Shown piece by piece: positions 1,375 to 62,290 of a stretch of 64,000 nt of DNA; position 1 is the first letter of the stretch, and each line of letters starts with the position of its first letter. A program made the position numbers and the translations under genes. Where the stretch lies: the IMG/VR virus record IMGVR_UViG_3300013121_000044, positions 64,001 to 128,000 of that record; one strand, given 5' to 3'. A model generated the notes under the pieces. It had not been told where the DNA came from and did not search any database. It saw only the letters and a list, made by a program, of their open reading frames with translations. Origin of the DNA: a virus (Duplodnaviria > Caudoviricetes).

Positions 1375-1872
1375 TCACGAGGTAACCGCGACGCGCCACG
1401 TGTACGTGACCGTCAGGAGTGCGGTCTTCGCAACCGCCGGGTGAACCTGCCGCGCGAAGAGGTCCCCGTTCGCGAGAACGAGACCCACTTCGCGCAAGGT
1501 CGAGCTATTCCCCTGCGAGGTCGAGAGGGTGCCGGTGATGACGAGCTCCCGGGAGGGGGCGTTGACCGCGAGGTTCGGGGCCGTCAGGTCGATCTGGTCC
1601 GAGGGACCCAGCGCCGCCCCGAGAGCGATGTCTCCCACCGTGGGTGGGGTGCCGTTCGTGCCCGGGGCGAGCTTCCCCGGGGATCCGCCAATCGAGGCGG
1701 CGCCCCCAAGCGCTTGCGCCAGGAGCTGCAACATCGCAACGTGACCCACGTACGTGATCGTGTTCCGAATCGCGATACGGCGTACGATTTCGCCTTCCTG
1801 ACGGACCACGAGTTCGATGTCCCCGCGCAGCGGGAGGCGCGCGGTCATCGCGAGGGAGCGGCGCTTTGTCAC
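1375..1872 (-). CDS. Tail-collar / tail-fibre connector protein
   Basis: LREVGLVLANGDLFARQVHPAVAKT..LTVTYTWRV resembles the tail-collar fibre N-terminal fold; synteny with baseplate genes. Confidence 0.7.
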   Translation of the reverse strand: MTKRRSLAMTARLPLRGDIELVVRQEGEIVRRIAIRNTITYVGHVAMLQLLAQALGGAASIGGSPGKLAPGTNGTPPTVGDIALGAALGPSDQIDLTAPNLAVNAPSRELVITGTLSTSQGNSSTLREVGLVLANGDLFARQVHPAVAKTALLTVTYTWRVAVTS

Positions 1873-4800
1873 GGGCCAAGAGTAAGCTGGACGGCCCGAT
1901 CCACCAACCCCGTAACCTCCGGGTTCTGGTCCGCGCCGCGCACGAACGTGGGGTCCGTTCCGCCGTATACGATCGCGGTCTCCCCCGGATCGTGAGGGTC
2001 CGACGGCGCGAGCACGCGGCGGATACAGTCGACGTAGAAGAGATCCACCGGGTTCGGCGTGATCGTGACACCGCCGGTCACCTTGACGGTCCCCGCCGTG
2101 TAGTCCACCGTGTAGTCGGTACCCTCGATAGGCCGCCGACCCCCTACGCGCGCGGCGGGGTCGAAAGCTACTTTCACCAGAGTGCGGACCGCTGTAGGTC
2201 CCGCAGGCAGCACCGTGGGCAGCGCCTGTACGAGTCCGGGCGTAGGCGTGAAGGACGTGGAACGAGCTACGAATCGGTAGCAGTCCCCGTAGCGGAGGAG
2301 GCTCGTAGGGGCGTACGTCGCTTGGGCGTTCGGGAAACGGAGGAGGTCTTCGAGGTGGTGGTTCAGGTCAAGCTCCACCGACTCGTCTACGTCGAGGACA
2401 TCGCGAAAAGATGTGAGGGTCTCGAAGAAGACGAACACGTGCGAAGGCTTCGCGGTTTTGACGACACGGAGGGTGTCTTCCAGGAGTTCGGTGGAGAGAC
2501 CCCCCGACGGATCTACGCGTACCTGGACCGAGTGATATTTGAGGTGGCGGTCCATCAGAATGAACGCCACGGTGCGCCGGTAAACGATCGGGGGCAGCTC
2601 CGCAGACAGAGTCTGCGGCGGGACCACGCCGTCGGCCTCGGGCGGTGGGAACCGCTCCAGGCGCAACGTCACGCCGTCACTCTCAACGCCGCGCACCCGG
2701 AAGTGTCCCCTGAAACCCGGCGTCGAAACGACGAGGTGCTGGCCCACGTCACGGGCACGTGCACCTTGAACCCCCGGCGCGAACGACAAGACGACCCGGT
2801 CGCCGCCATACCAGATCACGTCTCCAGCCCTGCGGGCGCTGGACCTGCCCTCGTCGTCGCCCCCATAGAAGAGGCCCTCGTCCCCCACTTGGGCGCCGTC
2901 GAGTGACCCGTACACGTGTTCGACGAGTTCTGGCGTGACCGTGCGGCGTGACCCCGAACCCGGCATGAGTTCCTCGGGAATCGTGACGCGGTGCCACCAC
3001 GTGGGGTCCTCCAGGTAGTCCACGACCCGGAAGGCGCGCGTGAGCGCCTCGAAAGCTCCGAAGGTGAGGATCCCGCGAGACGCCGCGTCCATCACGTCCG
3101 TCCGCATCGGGACGCCGATCGGGATGTCGTAGAAGGCCCGCGTGGTTGTGACTCGTTGCACCCCGGTGCGAGAGAGCTTCCACGTCACGGACACTTCGTC
3201 CACGAAGCCGTACGCCGTATCGAGGACGACGGTCAGAGGGTCGTCCAGCGATGTGATGCGAAACACCCCCCGATTGTGCGCGTGCGTGCCGCTCGCCAGG
3301 AGAATGGAGGCGCCTACGTCGGCCTCCGTGAACCGGTAGCTCCCTCCGACGCGAAGACGGTCCGAAAGAACGGGGTGACGGAAGTCCCATTGGAGAGCGG
3401 CTCCGTCTTGAGGGACGGGGGACACCTCGACCGTCGACGCGTTCACGTACGCCGAGACCACGTAGGACTCGACACGACCCTCCCGGGTCACGCGCAAATT
3501 TGCGCCCACGTCCGTCGCCAGGAACGGAACAGACGCCGAGGTGAAACGGGAGGTGCTGTGGATCAAGACCCCGTCATGTCCGAGCGCCATCCCATACAGG
3601 GAGCCGTCGCCCCCGGAGGCTGTTACACCGTCGTCGTAACTCGCGAGGACCTCTCCGTCATCGCGGATGAGGGGCAGCTCAGCGACGGCGTTGAGCGCGC
3701 TCTCAAACCGATCGAAGGTGGGTCCGAGGAGGAACAGCCGCGACACGGCACGGAGGAATACGCGGTACGCCTCGGACGTGGCGCGCGGACGATCGAGGAG
3801 ACTCCCGAAGTTCCGGTAGAGGCGCTCCTCGTCGACGAGCGCGTCCGTGGCCCACGCGCCGATCTCGCGCACCGCATGAGGCACAGCGAAGGCAGCAGGT
3901 TCGCGGAAGGTCGCGTAACGGGTAGCGTCGACGGAACCGTCGGAGGTGTGGGAGCGCCGCACGACGCGTACTACGGTCCCGTCCAAGACCAGATCACCTT
4001 CGACGTACGCCCTCGGGGAGACGTATGCGCCGCGCCACGCGTGGGTTCGCCGCAACCGCGCGAGACGCCAGGAGTAGGAGGCCCGCGCGGGGCGCGCAGG
4101 GTCCCACGCGCTGAGTGCAGTCACGGCGCCATCGTCCGCGTCGAGCAGATAGTCGACTCCGGGCAACACCGCGCCGCCCGCCGGGTGCACGGTGGCGACG
4201 CCATCTGCGTCGACGGTGGTGCGCGCCACGGCGCGCCGTGCGGCGATCTCCACGGTCCCGGGCTGAACGTAGGTGTGTGGCAGCGTGAGACGGGGCGGCG
4301 ACCCCGACACCGAAGGCGTATAAGTGACGCGGTGGACGCGGGCGCGCGCGGCAGCGGTGAAGGGCGCGGGGCTCACGAGGGCTACGCGCCCGGCCCCGGT
4401 GGGCGTGGTGACGCCGTAGAGTCCGTCGTAACGTGGGTCCGAGGGCACGGTGAGGTACACGTAACCGACGCCCAGGTCGTCCCAGCGGGAGGCGTCGAAC
4501 CCGAGCCCGCTTGTGTGGGCTGCCTTGGCGCGACGAAGGGTGCCCCCCTGGTCGACCAAGGCGCCCTCGGCGTACGCCGTACTGGGAGCCCAAGGTCCGA
4601 CGTAGGCGGGCTCTGCTGAGAAGTTGAGCTCCCGCGTGGAAGCCACGGTCGACGCGTCTTCGGCTCCGGGGGTGATGCGGCGCACGTCCGTGGGGTGCGC
4701 GGGGAGGGGTCTTCCCACCACGTCCGGGTCGTAGGGTCGCCGCAAAACCGTCACCTCGGCGCCGCGTCGTGCCACGGTTTGCTGGAGGAGAGCGGGTGCT

Positions 4801-5405
4801 TCCCCGAGATGCAAGACCGCGCCGACGACGCCGGTTACGGGGGCTTCGGCCTCTCCGCCGCCTACGCGGAGACGCACGATGTCGCCTGGGAGCACACCGG
4901 TCCAGGCTCGCCCCAACGGGTCCTCCCACACCGAGGGGCTCGTCACCTGGACGACGCGAGTCGGGAAGAAGGGCAGCGGACCGCCTTGCCCGTCCGCATC
5001 GAAAGGGTTCGTGCGGAACGCGACGACTCCTCGTTCAACGCTGTAATCCCGCCCCTCCGTCAAGAACGCCGTAGGCACCAGCACCCGGTTGGTGAGGTAT
5101 TCGGCCGACGCGAGGCCGTCGCCGACCTCCACCAGGAACCGATCTTCGTCGGGCGTCTCGCCCTCCCGATAGGTGAGCCGGTCCTCGCGCAGAGGGCATC
5201 CTTTGAAGAACACGCGATCGTAGAGGGGCAGATCCCTCAGGCTTACACCGAGCGCGGCTTCGAGGAGGCTTTGATAGAGCTGCGCGGCGTCGAGCGCCAG
5301 CGCGTCCGCGTACGCGTCGAGGAACGCTCGGTCCTTGAAGAACGCGCTCCAGAAGTCCGACAGGGCGCGGAGAAACGTACGGGCTCCGGAGGGAGTCAGA
5401 GGCAC
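1869..5405 (-). CDS. Large baseplate wedge-like structural protein
   Basis: 1178 aa, directly after the baseplate J-like gene; C-terminal LRVVKTAKPSHV resembles the gpI/gp7-type 'KPAH' motif. Confidence 0.6.
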   Translation of the reverse strand: MPLTPSGARTFLRALSDFWSAFFKDRAFLDAYADALALDAAQLYQSLLEAALGVSLRDLPLYDRVFFKGCPLREDRLTYREGETPDEDRFLVEVGDGLASAEYLTNRVLVPTAFLTEGRDYSVERGVVAFRTNPFDADGQGGPLPFFPTRVVQVTSPSVWEDPLGRAWTGVLPGDIVRLRVGGGEAEAPVTGVVGAVLHLGEAPALLQQTVARRGAEVTVLRRPYDPDVVGRPLPAHPTDVRRITPGAEDASTVASTRELNFSAEPAYVGPWAPSTAYAEGALVDQGGTLRRAKAAHTSGLGFDASRWDDLGVGYVYLTVPSDPRYDGLYGVTTPTGAGRVALVSPAPFTAAARARVHRVTYTPSVSGSPPRLTLPHTYVQPGTVEIAARRAVARTTVDADGVATVHPAGGAVLPGVDYLLDADDGAVTALSAWDPARPARASYSWRLARLRRTHAWRGAYVSPRAYVEGDLVLDGTVVRVVRRSHTSDGSVDATRYATFREPAAFAVPHAVREIGAWATDALVDEERLYRNFGSLLDRPRATSEAYRVFLRAVSRLFLLGPTFDRFESALNAVAELPLIRDDGEVLASYDDGVTASGGDGSLYGMALGHDGVLIHSTSRFTSASVPFLATDVGANLRVTREGRVESYVVSAYVNASTVEVSPVPQDGAALQWDFRHPVLSDRLRVGGSYRFTEADVGASILLASGTHAHNRGVFRITSLDDPLTVVLDTAYGFVDEVSVTWKLSRTGVQRVTTTRAFYDIPIGVPMRTDVMDAASRGILTFGAFEALTRAFRVVDYLEDPTWWHRVTIPEELMPGSGSRRTVTPELVEHVYGSLDGAQVGDEGLFYGGDDEGRSSARRAGDVIWYGGDRVVLSFAPGVQGARARDVGQHLVVSTPGFRGHFRVRGVESDGVTLRLERFPPPEADGVVPPQTLSAELPPIVYRRTVAFILMDRHLKYHSVQVRVDPSGGLSTELLEDTLRVVKTAKPSHVFVFFETLTSFRDVLDVDESVELDLNHHLEDLLRFPNAQATYAPTSLLRYGDCYRFVARSTSFTPTPGLVQALPTVLPAGPTAVRTLVKVAFDPAARVGGRRPIEGTDYTVDYTAGTVKVTGGVTITPNPVDLFYVDCIRRVLAPSDPHDPGETAIVYGGTDPTFVRGADQNPEVTGLVDRAVQLTLGP

Positions 5406-5408
5406 GCG

Positions 5409-7427: not shown

Positions 7428-7865
7428 TTAACCCGGGGCGTACGGCAGGAGGAGCGGAACACGCTCGCGGGCCACGTTCGTGAGCTCCACCCAGAACTCA
7501 ACCCCCGCCGGGGGGAGCTCGACGAACTGCGCCAGCACCACCGTCAACACCCGTTCGTTCGCAGGGCGCGTAGGGGAGCGGCGATCCGAGGCGCGGAGCT
7601 GTTCGGTGGCGTCGTCGATCGCTTCGAGCACGTCCCCTTCCACGGAAGCGAGGTCCGCCACATTTCCGCTGATCAGGGAAGGGAAGAGCGTCCCCTCCTC
7701 TTTGCGCGTGGGGTGCGACCCCTTCGGCGTCATGAACAGCTTGAGCCAACGACTCGCCAGTTTCTGGACGCCCTCCACGGCGACGGGGGCGTCGCCCAGC
7801 GTGAAGAGGGCGCGCGCAGTCTGCGCCGACGGGTCAATCAACCGAATGTGGAGGTCCTTACTCAT
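7428..7865 (-). CDS. gp25/GPW-like baseplate wedge subunit
   Basis: 145 aa with GVQKL..RW.K..MTPKGS.P....EGT motif, immediately upstream of baseplate J. Confidence 0.75.
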   Translation of the reverse strand: MSKDLHIRLIDPSAQTARALFTLGDAPVAVEGVQKLASRWLKLFMTPKGSHPTRKEEGTLFPSLISGNVADLASVEGDVLEAIDDATEQLRASDRRSPTRPANERVLTVVLAQFVELPPAGVEFWVELTNVARERVPLLLPYAPG

Positions 7866-9034
7866 CCCGGTGACTCATCCCCCCAGAGCCCCGTCCGATA
7901 GTCGTAGACGTGGGGGCCCGTACCCTCCACGACGGGCAGGACCGGAGCGAGGCGTTCGGCGTTCGCGGCCGTCCCCGCAGCCTCCGCGTCGGCCCCCGCC
8001 TCCTGGTGCGAGACGCGCGCGCGCTCTACGAAGACGCGGCGCCGTGACACCTCCTGCATCCCGTCGCTTCGGTCAGCCGCCGCCACGTCGGCGTACGCCC
8101 CGAGGAGGAGCGTCGTCGCACCGAGGGTGTCTTCCGTGCCGAGAGCGGTTTGAGCCTCGGCCCGGCTCGCCGCAGCGGGGGGGTCTCTGCGGAACACCTC
8201 GGAGGCCACGTCGTAAAGGCCCTCGGCTTCAACCCGACGCGCGAGGTCCACCGCGAGGGGGGAGCCCGCGAGGAGCGGGGACGGTTGAGCGACCGCCAGG
8301 GGTTCGTCGGCGCGCGGGACGTAACGGATCCCATTTCCGACCGTGAGGTCGAGCCCCAGGTACGCAGAACCGAGCTTGGCGAACAGCACCGCCAGGGAGA
8401 CGAGCTGCGCGTCGGGGAAGGGCGCGATCTCGGGGCGGTCTCCCGCTCCTCGGCCCTTCCGCGCTGCGCATTCCACCGCTACGCATACGGCCGAGTCGCT
8501 CTCGGGCACAGGAGCCACACGCTCATCGAGCGGCGCCGCGACGTAGATCGCGCCGGATCGAGTCACGACCACGTGGTAACCGGGGCTCCCCCCCGCCGTG
8601 CGCATTGCGGCGAGGAGGCCCGCCGTCTTCTCCGCCACCGAGGTGTCGTCCGCGAAATCGGCGGGGGCGAGGTAGGTCTCATCGCCCGGGTACGGCGCGA
8701 GGCCCGGCGCGCCGGCTCGCCTTGTCGTTCGCACGGCACGATCTGCCGGGGACGCCCCCTCCAGACGCAGGAGGTCGCGCTGAAGGCCGTACGGAACGAG
8801 CAGGATCCGGTCCACGGCGCGCCCTTCGTTGCCGTCGTCGGGGAGGGCGTTGGCGGGGTCCAATACGGCGTACGCGAAGGGGAGGTCCGCGAGGAACCCC
8901 ACCTCCGAGAGCCAGCGGCCCGAGCGGGCCCGGGAGCGTGGGCGCACGTTCAGGTACACCGCCGCCCGACGTTCGCGCGTGCGCGCCTGATCGGTCAGGG
9001 CCGTTCGGAGGACTTCGGAGGCGCGGCCGGTCAT
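7862..9034 (-). CDS. Amidase_2/PGRP-fold protein, probably non-catalytic, virion associated
   Basis: GYHVVVTRSGAIY...SAVCVAVE...FPDAQLVSLAVL matches the N-acetylmuramoyl-L-alanine amidase core, but the Zn-ligand His residues are not apparent. Confidence 0.55.
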   Translation of the reverse strand: MTGRASEVLRTALTDQARTRERRAAVYLNVRPRSRARSGRWLSEVGFLADLPFAYAVLDPANALPDDGNEGRAVDRILLVPYGLQRDLLRLEGASPADRAVRTTRRAGAPGLAPYPGDETYLAPADFADDTSVAEKTAGLLAAMRTAGGSPGYHVVVTRSGAIYVAAPLDERVAPVPESDSAVCVAVECAARKGRGAGDRPEIAPFPDAQLVSLAVLFAKLGSAYLGLDLTVGNGIRYVPRADEPLAVAQPSPLLAGSPLAVDLARRVEAEGLYDVASEVFRRDPPAAASRAEAQTALGTEDTLGATTLLLGAYADVAAADRSDGMQEVSRRRVFVERARVSHQEAGADAEAAGTAANAERLAPVLPVVEGTGPHVYDYRTGLWGDESPG

Positions 9035-9049: not shown

Positions 9050-9757
9050 CTATTGCCGAAGGCCCTGCGCCTTCACGAGCACGTCCTTGATCTTCCCCAG
9101 TTGATGCGAGAGCTGCCCTTGGGTGAGGCCCGTAGCCTTCATGATCTGCGGCCCCCGCAGGACGGGTGCGCCGCCGTACCCTGTACGGTGCTCGAAGATC
9201 TGGCGCTGGACCGGCGTCATGTCGTGCCACGCGAGGTGAACGACCTCGGGGTCGTCGAGGTGCTGGACGAACGAAGGGCCTTCGCCGGACTCCATGTACT
9301 CGCGCTTGGCCACCTCCGCCGAGAGCGCCTGAATGCGCGTCGGAGGCAGACGCATGTGGTCTGCGAGCTCCTCCAAGGAGGGAGGACGACCCAGTTGGTC
9401 TTCGAGCCTTGTCCGCTCGCGGTTGATGTTGTTGAAATCCAGGCGCTTCGCCTCCGGTACGGTGAGGATGGACTGCCGCGCGTACGCCGTACGGGAGAGC
9501 TTCATGAGGTGGTTCGTGACGTGACTCGCCAGCGCCGTGGGCGGCACGTGCTTCGGGTCATAGTCGTGAAATGCCTTGATCGCGAGGCGCTTGGCTTCGT
9601 TCTCCAACAGGAAGACAGGCGCAACACGACTCCAGCGCCCGACCTCGCGCCGGAGGATGGGCTCCATCTGGCGGAGGAGCGCGTCGAGGTCCGCTGAGGA
9701 TCCGGTCCGCTTCCACTGCTCCCAGAGGAGGATGTCCTTGCTCTTGGTCTCGTTCAT
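9050..9757 (-). CDS. Phage RNA polymerase sigma factor (sigma-70 family, FliA/WhiG-like layout)
   Basis: Region 2 (AIKAFHDYDP), region 3 (LEDQLGRPPSLEELADHM) and region 4 HTH (MTPVQRQIF...QIMKATGLTQGQLSH). Confidence 0.85.
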   Translation of the reverse strand: MNETKSKDILLWEQWKRTGSSADLDALLRQMEPILRREVGRWSRVAPVFLLENEAKRLAIKAFHDYDPKHVPPTALASHVTNHLMKLSRTAYARQSILTVPEAKRLDFNNINRERTRLEDQLGRPPSLEELADHMRLPPTRIQALSAEVAKREYMESGEGPSFVQHLDDPEVVHLAWHDMTPVQRQIFEHRTGYGGAPVLRGPQIMKATGLTQGQLSHQLGKIKDVLVKAQGLRQ

Positions 9758-12700
9758 GGACTTGGCCTCACGCGTTGACGCACCTTTTCACGGTACTCGT
9801 CCAGGACACGGTCCCAGTCTGCTCGCGTCTCCGGGTAGTCGGACGGCACACCGCGCGTGACCGAGGAGGGTTGAACGGTGGGAGGTTCGGTGTACCCCCG
9901 CTCCTCCGCCGAAGGCGGCGTGAGGTGATCCTCGCCCGTACCGGGCCCCGGGCGCAGCTTGAAGATCCGGTCGTAGAAGCCCGCCGTAGGGCGCGTCGTC
10001 GTGCCCACGCGGACGCGCGCCTCCCCTTGCGTCCCGGCGCGCTCGGTGACCGTGTCGGTGACGTTCTCCGTGGTGTAGGCGAAGTCGTACCGAACCTGCC
10101 CGACCTGCCCCACTTGCTGGAGGGTGCCGACGGGTTTACCGCCATGCCAGAAGCGGATGTACTCGTCCAAGGTGCAACAGGGACGGGCGCAGAGTCGCAT
10201 CGCCACGTCGTAACTCGCGAACGCGTCCGCGTAAACGTTCTCTCGCGGCGCAAACTCGCGGTTAGGGTCCAGGTTGGTCGTGACCGTGGTCTGCCCTTGG
10301 GACGAGAGGCCCGAAGCGGAGGCGGACTGTGCCGTCGTCGCGGGGGTCGGCTGACCTTGCTCAGACCCCGGCGTATCCGCGTCGGCGGCCTCCGCGCGTG
10401 CGGTGTCCCAGTTCCTCCGGTCTGCGTCGGCACCCTCCCCCATGCCACCCGCGAGAGCTTCCACCCCTGCGAAGTCGCCGCGCTCCAGGAGCGCCGCGAG
10501 ACGGGCCCCGCCACGCTCGCGCCGGAGCCGGTGGAGCGCTTGCTCGGCCGCACGAAGGCGCGCTTCGACAACGGCGACGGAGTCCCCGACAATTTCAACC
10601 GGCGCAGAACGCGGTCCGTCCGCGTAGCCCATGGCCTCGGTCCAACGAAAAGCGGCGCCCGAGAGCGTGGGGCGGCCTCCGTGGAGGAGCTGGGAGTAGA
10701 AGGACTCCGCTTGATTTTCGTCCTGAACCACTTCCCGGATCTCGGAGATGAGCTCGGCGGGGGCCGCCGTCACTCGCCCCGCGAACCGCAAGGCGTCGGC
10801 GCGCACGTCGGCCACGAACTCCGCGAAGGTGCGGCAGTAGCTGAGCTGGACCTGGGTCGAGAGGGAGGCGCCCCCGCTCGACACGGACCCCCGGTGCGCG
10901 AAGGACTGCACGTAAGCCGCCACGTGCATTCGCACCGCCATGGAGTCGAAGAGCATCGCGGGGAAGCCCGCGACGAGGTACGGGTGGAAGAAGAGGTTCG
11001 CCCCGCCGGAGCGCTGCGCGTACCGCTGACGCAAGAACTCCTGTTGCACGTAGAGGCGGAAGAGGGGCGCGAACGCGTCGCCTTCGTTCGTCGCGGCGGG
11101 CGCGAGCGCGTCGCCGTGCGGAGGTGCGCTGGTGGTCGTGGGCGGCACCCCGGTTTGACTCCCCGGAAGGGCCGTCGCCCCGCGCGGCGCAATCCGCGCC
11201 ACCGGGCGACTTACCACGGTCACAGGGGCCGTGGATCCGAACTGGGCGGGGGCGCCGCGCGCGAGGATCCCGGTAAGGCCCGCCGCCGACTCCTTCGTGA
11301 GCGTGACGTGGATGTGATCGAAGTGATCCATCTGCTCGGAGTTGGGGGCCTCTCGAAAGTGACGGAGCTTCCGCGCGCTCGCGCGCGTGGGTCGTCCGTT
11401 TCGCCACCCCCCAAAGGCCCCGCCGCTCCACGTGGTGCGCGCGTACGTGATGAAGGCGATGCCGAACGCCTCCGCGTTCTCGATCAACCAATTCGCGATC
11501 GGGGCGCCCACCTCCAGGTTCGCGCGGACGACGCCGTCCCGGCGGACCTTCGGGATCGTGAGGTCGAGGGCGCGGCCGGCCTGATGATCGTCCACCTTCG
11601 CCTCGGGGTCCGTGTAGACCTTCACGCGACGCGTCGGTCGGCTGAGGCCGATCGTGTGGTTGATGACACGTCGTCCCTGAGAGTCCGGGAGGAACTGGCG
11701 GCTGAACGTGCCCGGGAATTGGCGGTAGAGGAAGTCGCGGAACGCGATCGTGCCGCGCTGCGGCGGGATCTGGTTCCTCCCTCCCATCTCGCGATACGCC
11801 GTACTCTCGTAGACGGTATTCTGGGTGTCCCCCCTCGCCAGGACCTCCGGCGGCGGGATCCACCGGTAGGGGTAGTCGGGTCGCGCTTCCGGGCGGACCG
11901 CGTCGAGCACGGGCGCCTGTCGGCCGCCGCGACGATCAGGGCGGGCGGGGACGGCCACCAGGGGGGCGTCACGGACGGACGTGAGGGCCGTGATCGGCGT
12001 GGAAGGTCCGGGCGTCGTCACGACCGGCGTCGGGAGCGGAGGTGCGCGGTCCGCCCTGTTCGCGGGAGTGAGGGCCCCCGCCTGCGCGTTCGAGAACTGG
12101 CGGAGGAACTGGAACCACGGCGGGACCGCTGCGCGCGCCGTCACCGGCCCCTTGAAGTACTCCTCCGGCCAGATGAGGAGGTTCTTGCCGGACTCGGTGG
12201 GCCCCGACGCCTCACCGCCGGTCGACGACCCCACCTTGTGGTGCATGAGCGCGTCGGCTTCCTCGGGATAGCCCACGGTCAGGGCGTGGAGCATGGACTC
12301 CCGGTTCGGTCCGTCGGCGCGGAGGAGCTGTGTCATCACCGAATCGTTGACGTAGATGCGCGTGGGCTGACCGATGTAGTTCTCGTCGTAGGTCCACCCT
12401 CCCGCCGTGATCATCGAGGGGAAGATCACGTTGCAATGCGGCGGCACCGCGAAGAGGAACTGGGGCTTGGCAAAGTACTGCGCGAGACGGATCGGGGTCG
12501 TCGGGGAGACTCCGAGCTCGTGGCCCGTGCCGGGGGCGGGGCTCGGCGCGATGGAGATGCCGCGTGCCGCGTCCTGGGTCGACCGCTGGTCCACCAGGGG
12601 CGTGTCGTAGCGGGGAGCCCCGATGATCCGTCCGTCCACCGGGTTGCCGCCCCCGGAGGTGTCGCCGAGCTGGACGAGGACCGAACACGGGTTCGGCACC

Positions 12701-49975: not shown

Positions 49976-51340
49976 ATGAAGCTCACTGGTGTTCAGATCG
50001 AAAGTTTCTCGAAGGCTCTCATGTCCGCGTTCCCGAATCGCGGCGAGCTGGAGCGCATGGTGCTGTACCACTTCGGGGAGAACCTCAACACGATCGTGGA
50101 GGCTAGCCCCCTGACGTACACGGTCCACAAGCTCATCGAATGGGCGATGGCGCGAGGTTCCGTGGCTCAGCTCCTCAAGGCCGCCCGCACGGCCAACCCC
50201 GGCAACGAGCAGCTCGCCCGGCTGAATTTCGACGGCCCCGCCACGGCCTCGGTCCCCGCCACGCAACCTGCGCTTCAACGACACCTCTCCACGGAGAAGA
50301 CCATGGACTTCCGTGATCGACAGATTCACCTCTCGCACAAGAGGGGGCTCATCCTCCTCGTACAGGATGCTCTCAACACGAACAACGAGACGGCGCAGAA
50401 AGTCTTCGACGGCCTCTTCGAGGATGACGTGACGTACCAGGAGCTCCCCAACCTGAAGGATCGGGCGCTCGCGCGCGCAATCGACCGGCACCTCGGTGCC
50501 GGCCACAACATCAAGGAGACGCGCATCGACAACCTGCTCGACGCCATCCAGGGCGCCACGCCCGACCGCCGTTATTGCGAGACGTGCGGGCGATTCGATC
50601 TCGACCAAAAGGGCGGGAGCTGGTTCGTCCTCGACCGAGACACGTGCCCGAAGGACGACGGGATCTTCCAGCGGGTCGCGTTCCCGACGCCCTTCAGGGC
50701 ATGGACCGACCACCGGATGTACGAGCCCGAAACGGAGAAGGACGCCCAGAGGCTCCCCATCAAGGACGGACCGCTCCGTCGGTACATCAGCGACCAGGGT
50801 GGCGCCGTGGGCAAGTGGCTCGACACGGCACTGACCGCGACCAAGGGCGCGCTCTCCCTCGTCGACTTCGCGGACTACCTGCTCTGGCAGTCTCGGAACT
50901 TCGGTGACCCCACCTCGATGGCCGCCAAGGTGGCCGTCATCAAGGCCCTCACGGACCCTCGGTCCTTCGCCTTGGACGAGACGGGCGTCCGTATCGAGGT
51001 CAACCGGGCCCTCCAGTTCCGGGGGACCCAGATGGCGGATGTCCAGGAAGGAACGCGTGTCGAGCAGCAGCCCGTCGGGCCGGCTCACACGGGCGTCGTC
51101 ACGTCGAAGATCCTGCGCGAGACCCTTGCGCGGCTCTACCCGAGCAGTGGGGATGCGCGGCGTCTCGCGAACGACGTGGGGTTGCCTCAGGGGCGCGTCG
51201 ACTTCAACGGAAAGGCGCTCTCCTTCTGGTTCGAGGTCCTGGAAGAGGCCGAAAAGCTGCATCTGCTTCAGCGTCTCGTGGAGCTCGCCTACGAGCAGTA
51301 CCCCCTGGATCCCGTGTTGCGGGCGTACCTGAAGAAGTAG
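49976..51340 (+). CDS. EAD1 - unknown - EAD1 protein (two effector-associated domain 1 modules)
   Basis: N-terminus LTG.Q...F..AL.SAFP....LERM......NL..I.....L...V.KLI.WA.A.G....LL.AAR.ANPGN..L; C-terminus LR..LA.LYP...DARR.A.D.GL.......G.A..FW..VL.EAEK...L..L...A...YP. Confidence 0.8.
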   Translation: MKLTGVQIESFSKALMSAFPNRGELERMVLYHFGENLNTIVEASPLTYTVHKLIEWAMARGSVAQLLKAARTANPGNEQLARLNFDGPATASVPATQPALQRHLSTEKTMDFRDRQIHLSHKRGLILLVQDALNTNNETAQKVFDGLFEDDVTYQELPNLKDRALARAIDRHLGAGHNIKETRIDNLLDAIQGATPDRRYCETCGRFDLDQKGGSWFVLDRDTCPKDDGIFQRVAFPTPFRAWTDHRMYEPETEKDAQRLPIKDGPLRRYISDQGGAVGKWLDTALTATKGALSLVDFADYLLWQSRNFGDPTSMAAKVAVIKALTDPRSFALDETGVRIEVNRALQFRGTQMADVQEGTRVEQQPVGPAHTGVVTSKILRETLARLYPSSGDARRLANDVGLPQGRVDFNGKALSFWFEVLEEAEKLHLLQRLVELAYEQYPLDPVLRAYLKK

Positions 51341-51769: not shown

Positions 51770-51790
51770 GTACGCCGTACGCCCGAGGGC

Positions 51791-52144: not shown

Positions 52145-52783
52145 ATGATGAACCTCGCCCGTAAACCGCGCGTCGGCGTCGACGTGGACGGCGTGCTCGC
52201 CGACCTCCTGACGCCTCTCTTCCAACACCTGAACACGCTGCTCGGTACGACGTACGCCCCTGACCACATGAAGGACTGGGACATCGCCGAGCTCGTTCCT
52301 CCCGAACGTCGCGACGAGTTCTGGAACACCTTCGGCCGGGAAGTGCGCGTGCACGACGCCCTCCAGCCCCTGCCGGGAGCGGTGGAGGGGATGAAGCTCC
52401 TCCAGGAGGTGGCGGACGTTTACATCGTCACCGCCTACCTTCGCTCCGCCCCGACCTGGGTGCACGACCGCGACCGGTGGCTCTCCGCGCACTTCGGGGT
52501 GGGCGACAGGAAGATCGTCCACACGCACGCCAAGTACGTGTTCTCCGGGGAGATGCTGATCGACGACAAGCCCGAGACCGTGGAGCGATGGTGCCGAGAA
52601 CACCCGAACGGGCGCGGAGTCCTCTGGGATCAGCCCTACAACCGCGCCGCCGCAACGCGACAGATCCTCTGGTCTTCGGAGACGTTTTATCACGTGACCG
52701 GCGGGAACAGCCACGCGATGATCCCTTTCAGGACCTCGGACTGGTCCTGTGTCTGCGCGATTCTCCACGAATGGCGACCGTGA
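52145..52783 (+). CDS. 5'(3')-deoxyribonucleotidase (HAD, NT5C family)
   Basis: VDVDGVLAD, IVTA, LIDDKP, QPYN. Confidence 0.9.
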   Translation: MMNLARKPRVGVDVDGVLADLLTPLFQHLNTLLGTTYAPDHMKDWDIAELVPPERRDEFWNTFGREVRVHDALQPLPGAVEGMKLLQEVADVYIVTAYLRSAPTWVHDRDRWLSAHFGVGDRKIVHTHAKYVFSGEMLIDDKPETVERWCREHPNGRGVLWDQPYNRAAATRQILWSSETFYHVTGGNSHAMIPFRTSDWSCVCAILHEWRP

Positions 52784-54151: not shown

Positions 54152-54597
54152 ACGACGAGGCGGAGCGCTTCCGGTACTGGTGGCCCTACGTATTGGCCGC
54201 CGCCCACCACCAAGCGGGCCACTACGACTACCGCACCCACATCCTCCGCGTCGTCCTCCGTGAGGATGCGAAGAAGGAGAACATCGTCGACCCTCACAGT
54301 CTGGACGCCGCCGTGGAACATACGGCGTCGCTCTCCTATGCGGACGCGGTGCAGGTCCTCGCCCCGATCGCCAAGGACCTCCCGCCGAGTCATAGCATCC
54401 AGGCGCCTCTTCAGGCTCTTCAAGAGCCCGCTCTGCGAGAGGAGAAGCACGTGGTGCTCATCTCGCAGACAGGGCACTTGGAAGTCGACGCGTTCGTCTT
54501 TCCCACTCCCATGCTCCGCAACCGGAAGTCCACCGCGTCGGTTTCCGTCGTGGCGGCCCTGGCCCTGGCCGAGCCCGGGGCAGGGAAGTCCGGCTGA
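54148..54597 (+). CDS. Hypothetical protein
   Basis: GTGA overlap. Confidence 0.5.
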   Translation: MNDEAERFRYWWPYVLAAAHHQAGHYDYRTHILRVVLREDAKKENIVDPHSLDAAVEHTASLSYADAVQVLAPIAKDLPPSHSIQAPLQALQEPALREEKHVVLISQTGHLEVDAFVFPTPMLRNRKSTASVSVVAALALAEPGAGKSG

Positions 54598-55289
54598 TGG
54601 ACGCGAGACCCCAGAACCTGAGGCGCAGTCTCGTACGGGAGGCGCTCACCGAGCGCGTGACGGCGGAGGCGCTCCTCCTCGACCGTACGGCGTATGCCGA
54701 GCTCCACGCGGCGCTCGCCAAGCTCTCCCCCCATGAGGCCGAGGTGGTGTCTCGCCACTTCGGCCTCATGGGGGAGCCCGAGACCTACGAAGCCATCGGA
54801 GCATCCTTCGGGAAAACCAAGTCCGCCGTGGGGGCCACCCTGCGGCGCGCTCTTTGGCATCTCCACCTCCTCCTCCGTGACGGGCCCGAACCCCTCGCCC
54901 CGGGACTCGACGCCGAGGAACGAGCCGACCTGCGTCAGATCGCGAACGGGTGCCCCCCGTTCGCGTTTCGTGACGAGGTGAGGCGTCGCCTCGTTCGACG
55001 TGGCCTCATTCGACAGAGGGAGCGAAACCCGGACCGTCTTCCCGAGCGCCTGAACTGGGAGGTCACGGAGAAAGGAGCGATCGTCGCACGCCTCGTCGAA
55101 CCCAACCCCTTCCGCCCCTACCGGTGCCTCTGCGCGGGGAAGTGGACGGCATGCCCGCTCTGCGGGGAGACCTATCACACGCACACGATGTCCGGGTTCT
55201 GGTTGCCGCCACGATGTAAGGTGTGTCGAGGCGAACTCGACCCGGCGAATGATCAAGGGCCCCACTTCACGCGAAGGCGGACTCGGTGA
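54597..55289 (+). CDS. Sigma-70 region-4-like HTH protein with C-terminal zinc ribbon
   Basis: LAKLSPHEAEVVSRHFGL..EPETYEAIGASFG...V....RRAL.HL. Confidence 0.7.
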   Translation: MDARPQNLRRSLVREALTERVTAEALLLDRTAYAELHAALAKLSPHEAEVVSRHFGLMGEPETYEAIGASFGKTKSAVGATLRRALWHLHLLLRDGPEPLAPGLDAEERADLRQIANGCPPFAFRDEVRRRLVRRGLIRQRERNPDRLPERLNWEVTEKGAIVARLVEPNPFRPYRCLCAGKWTACPLCGETYHTHTMSGFWLPPRCKVCRGELDPANDQGPHFTRRRTR

Positions 55290-55801: not shown

Positions 55802-56106
55802 GCCGCAGGAAATCTCAACCCGAGGAATCCCCTGCGCCCACCCAGGAAGACATCGACGAAGGCATCTGTCTGGACGAGCGCGAAGGCGAGATCTCCCGAG
55901 GGTTTCGGGGCTCCGTTTGCGAGGATGGAGTGGCAGCGCTTTACCAGCGTCGCGTCCTCGCCCAGAGCACGTCTCGCTCTCACCTCTTTCAGCTCCTTCG
56001 CGCGAAGGCTGAGGAGCTCTGCTTTCCTCGAATCTTCGAGGTGAACGATCACGGGAACGTAACCGAGTTCTCCTACACCGGCAAAGTGCTGGGGGAGTGG
56101 GTATGA
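55798..56106 (+). CDS. Hypothetical protein
   Basis: FP.IF.VNDHGNV motif common in phages. Confidence 0.55.
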   Translation: MSRRKSQPEESPAPTQEDIDEGICLDEREGEISRGFRGSVCEDGVAALYQRRVLAQSTSRSHLFQLLRAKAEELCFPRIFEVNDHGNVTEFSYTGKVLGEWV

Positions 56107-56735
56107 AACAATTCGCCGGACCGTTCGACAACCTGGAGACTGACATCCTCGCGGGGATGGCGAACCTCTTCTGGTGGGAGGCGTGGGCCCATCACCAAGA
56201 CGAGCTTCACGAAGAGGGTCTTCCGCACGCAAACCTCGCAGGCGCGGAGATCGCGCACGTCGCCGACGATCCGTCGGAAATCCAGCGAATCGACATCGAG
56301 AATCACGTCAAGGCAGTCCGAAAGAAGATCGAGGCCGCGAACCACGCCAAGCTCCCGACGCTCTACAAGCGCGCCATCGAGGCGAATCGGAAGGCGGCCG
56401 AGAAGGAAGGTACGCCGTACATCCCCGGAGCGCGAGCGAGCGAAGATCAATTCGGCTCCTGTCTCGCGCACATGTCCATGGGCACGGGCGTGTCGTGGTT
56501 CGACGACAACGAGAAGTTCGACCTGGAGGTGCCCTACAGCGAATACGGGTCGTGCTATCTGACGTGGGAAGGACCTGACGCGGACACCGCGATCAAGGCG
56601 TATCTCGCACGCACGAAGAAAAGCTCCCAGGATCCAGAGGAACTCCTCCAGCTCCTCACCGAGTTCCTCGACGACAAGAAGCTCGGCGGCGACCTCCACG
56701 AGTTTCTCCTCACCAAGACGGGAGGTCGTCGGTGA
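56097..56735 (+). CDS. Hypothetical protein
   Basis: FG..LA..SMG.GV.WFD motif. Confidence 0.6.
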   Translation: MGMKQFAGPFDNLETDILAGMANLFWWEAWAHHQDELHEEGLPHANLAGAEIAHVADDPSEIQRIDIENHVKAVRKKIEAANHAKLPTLYKRAIEANRKAAEKEGTPYIPGARASEDQFGSCLAHMSMGTGVSWFDDNEKFDLEVPYSEYGSCYLTWEGPDADTAIKAYLARTKKSSQDPEELLQLLTEFLDDKKLGGDLHEFLLTKTGGRR

Positions 56736-57109: not shown

Positions 57110-57709
57110 ATGAGTCTTCCGGAAAAAGGACGTGTGTATGAACTGCCCGCACGTGGGCGCCTTCTCGTCACAGGCTTCAGTCACGTCATGGTCGATTTCG
57201 TGTCCGAGGACGGCACCGTGGCAGGCGAGCTGCCGCTCGATGAGTGGGAGAAGGTGGTAGCCCCCACAGGGCGCCCCTCCTGGGACGACTACTTCATCCA
57301 GCTCTGTCACCTCGTGGCGACGCGGGCGACCTGCGACCGCAAGCACGTCGGAGCCGTGATCGTTCGAGACCGCAGGATCCTCGCCACCGGGTACAACGGT
57401 TCCCCACCCGGCACTCCCCACTGCGACGACGTGGGGCACGACCTCGTGAAGCTCGCAGACGGGTCCGTCAACTGCGTCCGAACGATCCACGCCGAGGCGA
57501 ACGCCATCCTCCAGGCCGCCCGATACGGCGTATCCCTCCAAGGGACGGACCTCTACACGAACACCTACCCCTGCTGGGCGTGCGCGAAGATGATCCTGGG
57601 CGCGGGGATTACACGCGTCGTCTTCGACGCGGACTACCGGATGGACGCGCGCGTCAACGAAGCGTTCGTGGCGAAGAGCGTCAAGCTGGAGCGGTACAAG
57701 ATCGCGTGA
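57110..57709 (+). CDS. dCMP deaminase (ComEB-like) with N-terminal extension
   Basis: RPSWDDYF, ATGYNG, HAEANA, PCWAC. Confidence 0.93.
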   Translation: MSLPEKGRVYELPARGRLLVTGFSHVMVDFVSEDGTVAGELPLDEWEKVVAPTGRPSWDDYFIQLCHLVATRATCDRKHVGAVIVRDRRILATGYNGSPPGTPHCDDVGHDLVKLADGSVNCVRTIHAEANAILQAARYGVSLQGTDLYTNTYPCWACAKMILGAGITRVVFDADYRMDARVNEAFVAKSVKLERYKIA

Positions 57710-57718: not shown

Positions 57719-57940
57719 GTGATGATTCAAGTCGGGGATGAGTGGACGCGCGGCGTCTTCAAGAACGACGGACGGATCGACGGCGAAAGGCGGGTGAAGG
57801 TCCTCGCCATCGAGGGGACCAACGTGCTCATCGAGGAGATCGAGCAGCCCGCGCACAAGGAGTACGGGCACCCGCGACGGTGGGTGCCGAGCGCCGCGTT
57901 CATCGACGATAGCGCGGAGTTCTTCGGGAGGGAGACGTGA
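57719..57940 (+). CDS. Small hypothetical protein
   Basis: SD AAGGAGG. Confidence 0.6.
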   Translation: MMIQVGDEWTRGVFKNDGRIDGERRVKVLAIEGTNVLIEEIEQPAHKEYGHPRRWVPSAAFIDDSAEFFGRET

Positions 57941-59142
57941 CGACGCGCACCTGGACGATCCAGATGGACTGGCGCTGCAAGCACTGCGGCACCCGATGCC
58001 CCGGCATGTCCGGGGAGGAGCGCGAGAGCCTCCGGTGCACGCACTGCGGCGCCGAGAAGACGGACGAGGAGTGGCTCATGCCCGACTCGCCCGAGACGGC
58101 CCCCGCGCTCACCGGGGAGCTCGACCAGAAGGCGCGCGCGGGCGCCAACTGGACCTGCACGTACTGCAAGGCCGAGAGCCGCGCGGGGGCGAAGAGGTGC
58201 GAGGTGTGCGGCGCCGAGAGGTCCGTGGAAGTCGCATCGGCATCCGTCATCGTACGCCGTACGCCCGTCCCCGAAGAGGCGGTTCGCTCCGACGGACCCT
58301 ACCGAGCCCCGCCCACGCCCGCCCCCTGGCCGCGCCTCGTCGTCGACGAAGAGAGGGCGCTTCCGGTGACCCCCTGGTGGAAGGCCGTTTTCCCGGTCGT
58401 GGGAGCGGTCCTCGCAATCGTCCTCGTCACCGTCTTCTTCGGTTGGCTCTTCACGCCGAACGAAGCGGTGGCCGTGGTCGCCAAGATGACGTGGTCGAGG
58501 GAGCGTCGCTTGGAGGAACGACACGCCTACGAGGGGGAGGGGTGGCGGAAGAACGCCCCCTCGGGCGTCTTCTCCTGGGACCACTGCGAGACGCGGCAGT
58601 CGGGGATGGAGAACTGCCACCCCCACCGTTGCCGGTGTCACGATGTGTCCTACTCGTGCCGTTGCACGGGAGGCACGAGCTACTCCTGCAACTGTCGTCG
58701 GTCGTGCTCGACGCGATGCTCGTCGAACCGGAACGGTGCGGCGACGTGCTCGGAGTCGTGTTCGACGAGCTGCGCGACGTGCACGACGCCACGTGTCTGC
58801 TCGACGTGTTCCCGCACGGAATGCGACACGTGCTACGACCAGTGCCCCGTCTACGAGGACTGGTGCCGGTACCGCTATCACCAGTGGGACGAGCTTCGGC
58901 GACTTCGGACAGCAGGCGAGGGGACGGTGTGCGTCTGGCCTGCGCTCGACGCGACGACGCCCCTTCAGCGACTCCACTCCGAGGAGCACTACACCGTGCG
59001 CTTCGACGACACGAGGTCCGACCGGCGGTGGGTCCGCACCTACGACGACTACGCGCGCTACGCGCGCTTCGAGACAGGCCAGCGCTGGCGCATCGAATGG
59101 ACGCGCGCGGGGGGGTTCAACCTCAAAGGGCGCGCTCCGTGA
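57937..59142 (+). CDS. RanBP2-type zinc-finger membrane protein with Cys-rich extracytoplasmic domain
   Basis: WRCKHC...CTHC and WTCTYC...CEVC, one transmembrane helix, Cys-rich repeats. Confidence 0.75.
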   Translation: MTTRTWTIQMDWRCKHCGTRCPGMSGEERESLRCTHCGAEKTDEEWLMPDSPETAPALTGELDQKARAGANWTCTYCKAESRAGAKRCEVCGAERSVEVASASVIVRRTPVPEEAVRSDGPYRAPPTPAPWPRLVVDEERALPVTPWWKAVFPVVGAVLAIVLVTVFFGWLFTPNEAVAVVAKMTWSRERRLEERHAYEGEGWRKNAPSGVFSWDHCETRQSGMENCHPHRCRCHDVSYSCRCTGGTSYSCNCRRSCSTRCSSNRNGAATCSESCSTSCATCTTPRVCSTCSRTECDTCYDQCPVYEDWCRYRYHQWDELRRLRTAGEGTVCVWPALDATTPLQRLHSEEHYTVRFDDTRSDRRWVRTYDDYARYARFETGQRWRIEWTRAGGFNLKGRAP

Positions 59143-59843: not shown

Positions 59844-61088
59844 ATGCTGTTCGCGTCTGAGGACCTCCCCCTCCACCACACGTACTTCAAGGACGTGTTG
59901 ACCTCGGACGGGGGGGTCCTGGGACACTACCGGCGCGTGGCGCGCGGACTCGTGCGTTACTACCGCGAGTCCGTGCGTCCCGCGTTTCCGGGACTCCCCG
60001 CAGAAATCCCTCAAGACATGCTGGGGGAGCTGCTGGGGTTGAACTTCGTAAACCCCGTGCTGAGAAAGCTCCCAGAGCCTCGGCTTACGGAGACGAGCGA
60101 GATGGTCCACTGGTTGCTCTCGTGGCGCCAAGTGGGCGCACCCACGTTTCAACTTTCGCACTCGCTCGCCAGCGCACTCCTCCTCACGGACCCCTCGAAC
60201 GTCGTATTCGAGGACCTGCCCTGGCCCTACGACAGTTTTGTCCTGACGCTCCCGCATCCCAAGGGCCCTGTGCTTTTTACGGATGTCGAAGGAAGGGAGA
60301 TGGAGGGGCGCTACGTCGTGGTCCATCGCTACCGCGCCCCCATCGGACAAGACCTGCACCGTTACGGGCAGGAATTCATCGACCGCGTGAACACGATGGT
60401 CGGGCGCCTCCGCACGCAAGGTACAGATCAACCGGTACCGGTCAACGTCGCGGGACTCGATCCGCGTCTCCCAGTATGGGGTCCCTACCACTACCGCACA
60501 CACGTGCGGATCGTGTCTGAAACAGGCGTCAGTCTGTACAACCGATCCTTCTGGCCCGCGCAGGAGCCGGATAGTCGAGAGGCCGTTCGGCCGTGGGTCG
60601 CAGCCGAAGAGGGCAGTGAGTACGCCGTGCTCACACGCACCGACCGTGACGCCGTCAAGGCGGTGAATCGCATCGTCGCCAATCTCTCCCTCTATCTCGC
60701 AACCTTGTCGCAGAACAAACGTCCTGCGGAGAAGAAGCGACGCGGAGTGAACCCCGAGACGCGCGATGAGGGGTACGACCTCTACGAGGTCCCCCTGGTG
60801 GACCCCGAGAAGGGCACCGTGATCAAACTCGACCCCGCCTTGCGCGAAGCAGCGGCGAGCTGGTGTCGAGAAGGACATGATCCAAAACGTTGGTCCCTGT
60901 CCTCGCGGGTCGCCGTCATCGGGCACTGGAAACAAGTGCCCTACGGGCCGATGAAACCCCCCGAGGGGGTCTCCGACTGGAAGCGCCCGACGCGACGTAA
61001 GTGGATCGCGCCTTACAAACGTGGGCCCGACGCGGCGGAGACCGTCACCAAGACCTACCGGGCCGAGGGGCCCCCGGGGAAGACATGA
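59844..61088 (+). CDS. Hypothetical phage protein
   Basis: C-terminal V.GHW.....GP...R.WI.PY..G motif. Confidence 0.7.
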   Translation: MLFASEDLPLHHTYFKDVLTSDGGVLGHYRRVARGLVRYYRESVRPAFPGLPAEIPQDMLGELLGLNFVNPVLRKLPEPRLTETSEMVHWLLSWRQVGAPTFQLSHSLASALLLTDPSNVVFEDLPWPYDSFVLTLPHPKGPVLFTDVEGREMEGRYVVVHRYRAPIGQDLHRYGQEFIDRVNTMVGRLRTQGTDQPVPVNVAGLDPRLPVWGPYHYRTHVRIVSETGVSLYNRSFWPAQEPDSREAVRPWVAAEEGSEYAVLTRTDRDAVKAVNRIVANLSLYLATLSQNKRPAEKKRRGVNPETRDEGYDLYEVPLVDPEKGTVIKLDPALREAAASWCREGHDPKRWSLSSRVAVIGHWKQVPYGPMKPPEGVSDWKRPTRRKWIAPYKRGPDAAETVTKTYRAEGPPGKT

Positions 61089-61885
61089 CGCCTGAAGAAA
61101 GACTCGCTACGTGCACGACAACGTGCGCCGCGTGCGGCAAGGACCTCGTCAAACCCTACAAGAAGAGCGAGGTGGCGTCCGCACTCGAACACGCAGACCG
61201 GGAGACGCGGGCGCGCGTCGCGCAGTTCCGCGAGGGCGTCGCAGTTCGTGTCTCCACGCTCGATCTCACAGGCACGGACTTCGCGCTCGTGGTCTGCCCA
61301 GGACGCTATGAGCGAATCGCCTCCGAGGTGTGTCGCGTCAAGGCGCTCCAGAAGCACGCGGCGTGCCCTGTGTGTGGGGGCGAAAAGGACTACCGCCATC
61401 CCTGGCCGCTCCCCTGTGCGACCTGTACGACGTACGCCGCAGACGGCTACGCCCGGGACAAGCTCAACCAGGAGCGCGGCGAGAAGCACGCGGTCTTCCT
61501 CTACACCCACATCGACGGTCTCTGGGCGAACTCTCACGACGACCGGCGTCTCTCCGAGGTCATGCGGAACTTCTTCACCGTCTTCGGTGTCGAGGAGCCG
61601 CAAAAGCCCGTCGAGAAGACGGTCGGGTGGTACGACAGCGGCTGGAACGAGCCGGAAGGCGTGAAGGTTCTCCTCGACGACAAGCAAATCGCAGCCGTGA
61701 CCCGCCTCTTTCGATGGTTGAACCTCACGGTCGCCAAAGCCCGAGAGGATGCCCTGCGGGACGGGTCGAGCCTCCTCCACAAGCTCGTCCATGGGCAGAT
61801 CACCATGGACGCGCTCACCGACGAAATCACCGAGCGCGTCAAGCGTTACCGTACGACGGCCGACAAGATCGAGAAGGAGAAGTGA
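61085..61885 (+). CDS. Zinc-finger hypothetical protein
   Basis: Several CxxC pairs. Confidence 0.6.
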   Translation: MTPEERLATCTTTCAACGKDLVKPYKKSEVASALEHADRETRARVAQFREGVAVRVSTLDLTGTDFALVVCPGRYERIASEVCRVKALQKHAACPVCGGEKDYRHPWPLPCATCTTYAADGYARDKLNQERGEKHAVFLYTHIDGLWANSHDDRRLSEVMRNFFTVFGVEEPQKPVEKTVGWYDSGWNEPEGVKVLLDDKQIAAVTRLFRWLNLTVAKAREDALRDGSSLLHKLVHGQITMDALTDEITERVKRYRTTADKIEKEK

Positions 61886-61886
61886 C

Positions 61887-62192
61887 ATGCCCTGTGGGGG
61901 AATTTATCCCATCGCCGGATCCTGGGTCGCGCCCTACGCGGACAGGAGGATGCGATGCTTCCACTGTAACAAAGAGGACACCGACCTCTGGTGCGAAGAA
62001 TGGGACGCACCTCTCCACCGCGCCTGCGTCGAGGCGTTCCTCCGGACTCCCGATGGTGAGATCGTCGTTCAACACGGCCACTCGATCGTGCTCGAACCGA
62101 ACGGCCCCGAAGTGTTCTGGGACGACGCGAACCACGAGCTCCGTGACGCCTCGGGCGTGCGTATCTTCCCGGATATCTCCCGCCTCAACTGA
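61887..62192 (+). CDS. Small Cys-rich protein
   Basis: MPCGG, CFHC; SD AAGGAG. Confidence 0.55.
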   Translation: MPCGGIYPIAGSWVAPYADRRMRCFHCNKEDTDLWCEEWDAPLHRACVEAFLRTPDGEIVVQHGHSIVLEPNGPEVFWDDANHELRDASGVRIFPDISRLN

Positions 62193-62290
62193 CCCGGGCG
62201 GCGTGCGGCCGTTGTCGCACGCCGCCGCCCCTCCCCTCGCTTTGGCCCGGAATACGGCGTATCGGGTAGAAGCACGTGGAGGTAACCCCT

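Follow-up and report, generated by a model that had tools for sequence, protein, structure and literature searches.

What reads a short interrupted palindrome that recurs about every 2 kb along the DNA of a large phage? The question is raised by a window of 64,000 nucleotides, bases 64001-128000 of the 186,803-bp IMG/VR record IMGVR_UViG_3300013121_000044 (Duplodnaviria; Caudoviricetes; an uncultured phage), in which the word TACGNCGTA is found from one end to the other. A preliminary description of this window had listed 33 copies by eye and had taken them for a selected DNA-level signal, possibly read by a dimeric phage protein. We refer to the copies collectively as the lattice. Our analysis suggests that the lattice consists of loading or operator sites for the phage's own orphan clamp of the ParB/KorB/Noc type, whose gene (genome 39887-41008) lies outside the window; we put the probability of this reading at roughly 55%.

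All 33 listed coordinates are correct, and two further copies (21174 and 56411) bring the number in the window to 35, against 0.21 ± 0.46 in dinucleotide shuffles, in agreement with the earlier estimate of less than one copy. The whole genome contains 90 copies and no copy of the reversed control word, and TACGNCGTA ranks first among its enriched 9-mers. Markov models of orders 1-5 predict 0.75-7.8 copies genome-wide, and shuffling of synonymous codons within genes gives 4.9 ± 2.1 genic copies, where 63 are observed. Five unrelated bacterial genomes of 2.6-7.9 Mb have 22-49 copies each, on a par with the reversed control; they were picked from matches of the phage ribonucleotide reductase (best matches at most 51% identical, from assorted phyla), and these matches were used solely for that purpose. 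The preliminary description had named two results that would speak against selection, namely loss of the enrichment under a higher-order Markov or codon-preserving null, and an equal frequency of the word in unrelated genomes. Since the enrichment persists under both kinds of null and the bacterial genomes are at background level, neither applies, and the view of the word as a DNA-level signal for a dimeric phage protein survives.

The form of the word is as strict as its number is high. With its flanks the full word is RTACGNCGTAY, the R at position -1 being present in 98% of copies, and the length of the spacer is specific: there are four copies with no spacer base, 90 with one, two with two and one with three. 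One-mismatch variants are not enriched (75 observed vs 77 expected), so selection acts on the exact word. A word with strict two-fold symmetry whose central base is free suggests recognition of duplex DNA by a dimer. We rejected a reading as an RNA-level hairpin, as no such structure can form from a 4-bp stem and a 1-nt loop, and a sigma-70 style promoter reading, as the sites are symmetric and the majority of them lie inside genes. A second class of enriched 9-mers, of the GGTCGTGGTC and GGTCGGGGTC types (16-24 copies vs 2-4 expected), is probably a coding repeat.

The lattice is also evenly spaced. After merging of overlapping copies into 85 clusters, the mean gap is 2206 bp with a coefficient of variation (CV) of 0.46, consistent with the interval of about 2 kb noticed by eye, and no random placement out of 5000 reached this evenness. 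The longest gap, 5994 bp (vs about 11 kb under random placement), coincides with a stretch of about 4 kb (genome 156519-160602, L018:14519-18602) that has neither a convincing open reading frame (ORF; standard code) nor a match in Rfam. As had been described, sites fall within genes in different frames (63 genic copies, all three frames represented) and are common between genes (26 copies, i.e. 29% of the sites in 12% of the DNA). Copies in frame 0 use the rare codon GTA (247 GTA vs 1877 GTC). There are 15 site centres at 10-50 nt upstream of a start codon, where 4.1 are expected. The central base has no orientation bias relative to transcription (24 sense G, 23 sense C), which, together with the palindromic nature of the word, argues against the stoperator-like function proposed earlier.

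Related phages keep the lattice and move its sites. The locus encoding the ParB-like protein has a conserved order of genes: RNA polymerase comes first, then a gene of unknown function, a helicase of the SNF2 type, a small gene, ORF-X (∼115 amino acids) and ParB; these are followed by a sigma-like gene in the opposite orientation, a second gene of unknown function, a PD-(D/E)XK nuclease, the primase-helicase-like protein and DNA polymerase A. Relatives with this synteny and with ParB proteins 36-91% identical to that of the phage all carry TACGNCGTA, at about one copy per 1.5-2.6 kb (for example, 44 copies in a whole record of 99.9 kb, and 19 in another of 35 kb), and the even spacing is repeated in four of them (CV 0.38-0.55, P ≤ 0.02 each). 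Individual sites come and go through synonymous codons: an AYAV peptide shared by the relatives has GTA where the site exists and GTC, GTG or GTT where it does not, and in a QVRRM stretch one site was gained solely via synonymous codons. A comparison of synonymous positions in relatives, one of the checks proposed earlier, thus finds that density is conserved and position is not.

A deeper sister clade with the same synteny (ParB 28-30% identical) has no or few copies of TACGNCGTA and carries another word, TTCACGNCGTGAA, a 13-bp odd palindrome of the form TTCACG-N-CGTGAA. The half-sites of TTCACGNCGTGAA contain TTCAC/GTGAA, the letters of canonical parS. There are five and eight copies of TTCACGNCGTGAA in two 21-kb loci of this clade, and 23 copies in 130.7 kb and 14 copies in 51.7 kb of its records, where ∼0.01 are expected; this lattice is as evenly spaced as that of TACGNCGTA, and the two words are mutually exclusive across records. 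In a further record, L033 (GC 33%, ParB P0022), we found no clear lattice in 11 kb and a weak GCAC-N5-GTGC signal.

The candidate reader is a protein of 373 amino acids, encoded 23 kb upstream of the window. Its residues 177-269 match the HTH_ParB domain (PF17762, E 2.5e-10), and it can be aligned with Spo0J, Noc, ParB and KorB over the GRRR box, the EN..R box and the helix-turn-helix (HTH). GRRRVRAA and ENDAR of the phage protein align to Spo0J and Noc, i.e. both the GxRRxRA arginine box and the EN..R box are present; among 40 homologues G130, R133 and N166 never vary, and R131, E165 and R169 are kept in 90% or more. The predicted structure has a mean confidence (pLDDT) of 85.5; its two domains, N-terminal and DNA-binding, match those of ParB, Noc and KorB at an E-value of 1e-9, and the modelled DNA-binding domain superimposes on the structures of Noc-NBS, ParB-parS and KorB-operator complexes with template modelling (TM) scores of 0.68-0.80, depending on the target. 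Judged by the model and these alignments, the protein belongs to the ParB/Noc/KorB fold and family. Residues 1-35 are of low complexity and rich in Lys, Thr and Ser; in the model they are disordered (pLDDT below 50) and form no helix. The genome has no match to the ParA family PF13614, and the ParA-binding motif [LFI]G[KR]G[LFI] (as defined in PMC12704722) is absent in 40 out of 40 family members. The protein thus belongs with the orphan ParBs covered by the survey in PMC12704722; many such proteins of phages are without a known function.

A conserved non-coding block precedes ORF-X and parB. It consists of a GGTAGAAG box, 16-17 nt, TTTACGSCGTAC, GTGGCA and the start codon of ORF-X, and the site begins exactly 34 nt before that start codon in the phage's own clade, in L037 and in L040 (GC 49%). 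The copy in this position carries the word of the local clade: L042 has a hybrid, TTTACGGCGTGAA, at the same -34 position, and L032 has TTCACGGCGTGAA 28 nt before the start codon of ORF-X. A local-word copy before the operon is the pattern that an autoregulated DNA-binding protein would show, and its conservation narrows the reader to ParB or ORF-X. ORF-X (L015:7529-7990, genome 39529-39990) is directly upstream of parB and is conserved throughout the lineage; it is overlooked by simple ORF calling, and in the own clade its frame extends about 100 nt into the start of parB. The predicted ORF-X protein has four helices, with no Pfam family and no fold match, and a reading as a KorA-like HTH protein finds no support in either search. 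The GGTAGAAG box itself has nine copies in the genome, all on the + strand and all intergenic (27055-27062, 32896-32903 and 62265-62272 in the window); eight of the nine are 22-74 nt upstream of a start codon, and the copy upstream of ORF-X/parB is kept in distant relatives. We consider the box a candidate promoter element for the transcription machinery that the phage itself encodes.

We propose that the copies of RTACGNCGTAY are docking sites for a two-fold symmetric phage protein. Dimers of the ParB-like protein would recognise the palindrome through the HTH_ParB domain, a nucleotide-dependent clamp would close through the N-terminal domain with its GRRR and EN..R boxes, and the closed clamps would slide or spread over the adjacent 1-2 kb. 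With a site per ∼2.2 kb and no gap above 6 kb, a single protein could reach the entire phage chromosome; such a reach would explain why selection acts on evenness rather than on position. The ∼15 sites located 10-50 nt upstream of start codons would serve as operators, including the one before the reader's own operon (autoregulation), and the remaining sites, within genes, as loading sites. The coating might control transcription or its timing globally, compact the DNA or mark it as self. From its operators, a KorB clamp slides over 1.5 kb or more and silences promoters at a distance (PMC11790492), and the agreement in order of magnitude between this range and the spacing of the lattice supports the proposal of a clamp.

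Several observations weigh against the ParB-like protein as the reader. The phage's own protein scores 15.4 bits for the Pfam ParB_N domain, short of the cut-off of 26.3 bits, and the 11-bp core of the word is shorter than the known sites of the ParB family (13-16 bp). The recognition helix (VSQYL.VF) is near-identical in both word classes, and no ParB residue tracks the word. The switch between words is a single event on the tree and all core genes diverged alongside, so covariation by itself does not identify ParB as the reader. The -34 site is degenerate or absent in L029, L030, L035 and L043. In this phage and in the relative G003 alike, a lattice site lies at the 3' end of a gene for an XRE-type HTH protein. 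Finally, eight unrelated viral contigs, found in a scan with a 16-nt tandem form of the word, have arrays of the heptamer GTACGCC that contain the word (GTACGCC/GGCGTAC arrays, e.g. L008:100-320, L012:3530-3730 and in L005; dense, in both orientations and in non-coding regions), and no ParB_N gene or ParB homologue was found in the records with these arrays. The arrays look like iterons or operators, and we rejected the contigs as relatives because the word arises there from local heptamer arrays and not from a lattice; with the same word present in unrelated contigs that have no ParB, the word alone is not diagnostic.

The lattice might instead be read by another dimeric phage protein acting as a global repressor or architectural factor. 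The preliminary description had suggested the XRE-type protein of 97 amino acids (35414-35707, + strand), and this is a real HTH protein (Pfam HTH_31, E 9e-12) with homologues in two relatives, G002 (51% identity) and G003 (a weak match); the lattice site at its 3' end (35688) has a counterpart 51 nt past the XRE gene in G003. As a binder it nevertheless ranks behind the ParB/KorB-type protein outside the window, which has a conserved site at its own operon. In XRE dimers, half-sites 6 bp apart from centre to centre, as in this word, are unusual. ORF-X has lineage-wide conservation and a place in the same operon as the conserved operator in its favour, but it matches no Pfam family and no DNA-binding fold. 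A protein of no recognised family could be the reader as well, given that most phage genes have no known family; yet any non-spreading repressor would give no reason for an even, kilobase-scale spacing of genic sites, and the half-site letters of the sister-clade word are of the ParB type. We regard a different dimeric DNA-binding protein as the reader as rather unlikely.

An enzyme of the phage or the host might also use the word as a target for modification, nicking or a restriction-like activity, marking the phage DNA chemically as self. The all-or-none specificity seen with the one-mismatch variants would suit this, as would the resemblance of a short interrupted palindrome to a type II recognition site, and the window does encode ThyX, dCMP deaminase, dNMP kinase and 5'-nucleotidase, with nucleases and helicases present too. 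But a search of the genome for N6/N4 and C5 methyltransferases and Tet/JBP dioxygenases (PF01555, PF00145 and PF12851 at E ≤ 1, the only such families searched) found none, so the earlier suggestion of a HIP1-like methylation mark fails for these families; nicking or packaging sites, also raised before, gained no support. A host restriction target is expected to be avoided, not enriched, and neither the even spacing nor the conserved copy before the parB operon would be expected of a modification motif, which makes an enzyme target quite improbable. A ParB-activated thymine dioxygenase was considered and rejected, for the genome has no Tet_JBP gene and the known ParBs of that system have no DNA-binding domain (PMC13229309). 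A role in replication or recombination, with the word providing priming sites for a primase-helicase or orientation-free Chi-like signals for a helicase-nuclease of phage or host, is very improbable. The spacing of about 2 kb is near the length of Okazaki fragments, the palindrome is identical on both strands, and the phage has a protein with Zn-finger, TOPRIM-like and P-loop motifs, PD-(D/E)XK nucleases and UvrD-, DinG- and SNF2-type helicases. Known primase and Chi signals, however, are short, asymmetric and read on single strands, whereas this word is two-fold symmetric with a free central base and has no strand bias; such a role would also leave unexplained the excess of sites near start codons and the conserved operator.

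Among known systems, KorB and its operator OB of the IncP-1 plasmid RK2 (PMC11790492, PMC13584720) are similar to the ParB-like protein and its proposed sites in several respects. KorB likewise combines a ParB-CTPase fold with an HTH; OB is an odd-length palindrome with a free central base (S, or N in the phage word), its 13 bp equal the length of the sister-clade site, and the operator TTTAGC-S-GCTAAA (PMC11790492) has the same geometry as TTCACGNCGTGAA. In both cases there are many copies across the replicon, some at promoters and some distant, with one before the reader's operon, and KorB slides over a kilobase-scale range that matches the spacing of the phage sites. The differences are in number and setting: RK2 has 12 sites in 60 kb, while the phage has 90 in 187 kb, evenly spaced and mostly in coding DNA; the phage has no detected IncC/ParA and no KorA- or TrbA-like HTH partner; and its core is of 11 bp with other letters, in the genome of a large phage that encodes its own RNA polymerase. 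Noc of the Firmicutes with its NBS sites (PMC7333895) is, like the phage protein, an orphan ParB paralogue without ParA and with palindromic sites dispersed over the chromosome. Noc has an N-terminal amphipathic helix for membrane targeting, in contrast to the Lys/Thr/Ser-rich start of the phage protein, its site density is far lower, and its part in cell division is without an obvious equivalent in a phage. Canonical ParABS systems have parS sites clustered near the origin and an adjacent ParA, unlike the 90 dispersed sites and missing ParA of the phage.

Among published phage cases the closest is a 17-bp dyad repeat, TGTTCGGNNNCCGAACA, in mycobacteriophages of Cluster O, with more than 30 copies within and between genes, for which the authors predicted a dimeric binder and a role other than promoter control (PMC4351075). 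Like the phage lattice, it is a strict palindrome dispersed through the genome, and Cluster O phages also encode a protein with a ParB-like domain and no ParA; PMC4351075 does not link this protein to the repeat and assigns no reader. Lineage, word and length differ from those described here, and even spacing, codon-level turnover and a clade-specific switch of the word are not reported for the Cluster O repeat (PMC4351075). The stoperators of Cluster A phages, discussed in the same paper, occur in tens of copies at about one per 2 kb with a phage-encoded reader, as proposed here, but they are asymmetric and oriented with transcription, whereas the present word is symmetric and shows no orientation bias.

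In the window, sites on the left are within genes of the - strand: ATACGGCGTACG at 1776-1784 in gene 1375-1872, 3211-3219 and 4573-4581 in gene 1869-5405, 8864-8872 in gene 7862-9034, 9483-9491 in gene 9050-9757, 11795-11803 in gene 9754-13626, 13837-13845 in gene 13616-14617, and 16827-16835 and 19065-19073 in gene 15818-19471. Then come two sites in + strand genes, one of the two copies missing from the first list (TACGACGTA, 21174-21182, in the DinG-like helicase gene 20547-22583) and 22976-22984 (in gene 22877-23317), and two sites between divergent genes, 27017-27025 (29 nt upstream of the promoter-like GGTAGAAG box at 27055) and 29195-29203. The site at 31943-31951 falls in the gene for a UvrD-like helicase (30480-32900, + strand), where the sequence is weakly intein-like. 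This is the site that had been placed inside an intein: it does fall in an Intein_splicing match (31329-32018) located between the N- and C-terminal domains of the helicase, but the match is below threshold (E 3.6e-4, 20.8 bits vs a cut-off of 35.8).

Further to the right, an intergenic site (33507-33515) is 15 nt upstream of the start of gene 33531-34211 (+), and the site at 35688-35696 occupies the final codons of the XRE gene and precedes the next start (35729) by 32 nt. Sites 36582-36590 and 38152-38160 are in genes 36363-36848 (+) and 38116-38589 (+). The overlapping 7-bp tandems described earlier are confirmed in two places: three sites in 7-bp register at 40996-41018, in the space between genes 40729-40974 and 41040-41315, occupy the middle of a longer inverted repeat, and two overlapping sites at 48950-48965 are between convergent genes. 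The SNF2-family gene 43857-47084 (+) has one intergenic site 10 nt upstream of its start (43838-43846; start at 43857) and one inside (45378-45386); 47348-47356 is in the dNMP-kinase gene (47091-47801, - strand), and 48846-48854, with atypical C..T flanks, is in gene 48636-48941 (+). An intergenic site at 51771-51779 is located 1 nt past a stop codon. The next sites are in + strand genes: 52246-52254 in the 5'-nucleotidase gene (52145-52783), 54686-54694 in a sigma-region-4 gene (54597-55289), TACGCCGTA at 56411-56419 (the other copy missing from the first list) in gene 56103-56735, 57524-57532 in the dCMP-deaminase gene (57188-57709), 58253-58261 in gene 57937-59142 and 61426-61434 in gene 61085-61885. 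The last site, 62253-62261, is intergenic and precedes the GGTAGAAG box at 62265 by 3 nt and a start codon by 29 nt.

The phage genome has a G+C content of 66%, and its record is probably a circular assembly, as its termini overlap by 141 bp. It encodes a multisubunit RNA polymerase, a terminase, a class II ribonucleotide reductase and a family A DNA polymerase, besides the helicases and nucleases mentioned above; the majority of its genes belong to no recognised family, and we identified no integrase and no immunity repressor. A megablast search with 25 kb against cultured-phage records found no close cultured relative; a tblastn search with the DinG-like helicase gave relatives of less than 35% identity only, and a scan of viral contigs with the same protein gave none. 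The genes for a ThyX-type thymidylate synthase (window 36850-37728), dNMP kinase, 5'-nucleotidase and dCMP deaminase form a set compatible with dTTP supply or a modified pyrimidine pathway. A protein of 454 amino acids (window 49976-51340) has two matches to Effector-associated domain 1 (EAD1, E 1.6e-33). The sole tRNA of the genome (L019:9089-9163, genome 167089-167163) has the anticodon CTA and reads TAG; it could be a suppressor, hinting at stop-codon reassignment or read-through in some genes. A conserved protein of 1169 amino acids (L015:12149-15658, genome 44149-47658) has no Pfam match and contains invariant Cys/His zinc-finger-like, TOPRIM-like (VEGE.DA) and P-loop (GPTGSGKS) motifs, from which we read it as probably a primase-helicase.

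ParB-family clamps have so far been associated with chromosome and plasmid segregation, with Noc, and with long-range silencing by KorB on a plasmid. About 90 exact sites, kept evenly at the cost of a rare codon (GTA) while their positions drift, point to the use of a clamp on the scale of a whole phage genome. Such a use would also explain the unassigned dyad repeats of other phages (PMC4351075). Tentatively, we suggest that large phages of one lineage, which encode an RNA polymerase of their own, may have distributed genic loading sites for a partner-less ParB-type clamp at a spacing set by its sliding range, so that one protein could coat or condense the chromosome and mark it as self (for transcription timing, for a protein-based replication compartment or as a shield against host nucleases), and that word and reader may have been re-specified together at least once. 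One protein with two clade-specific words that differ by a few bases amounts to a natural specificity-swap experiment.

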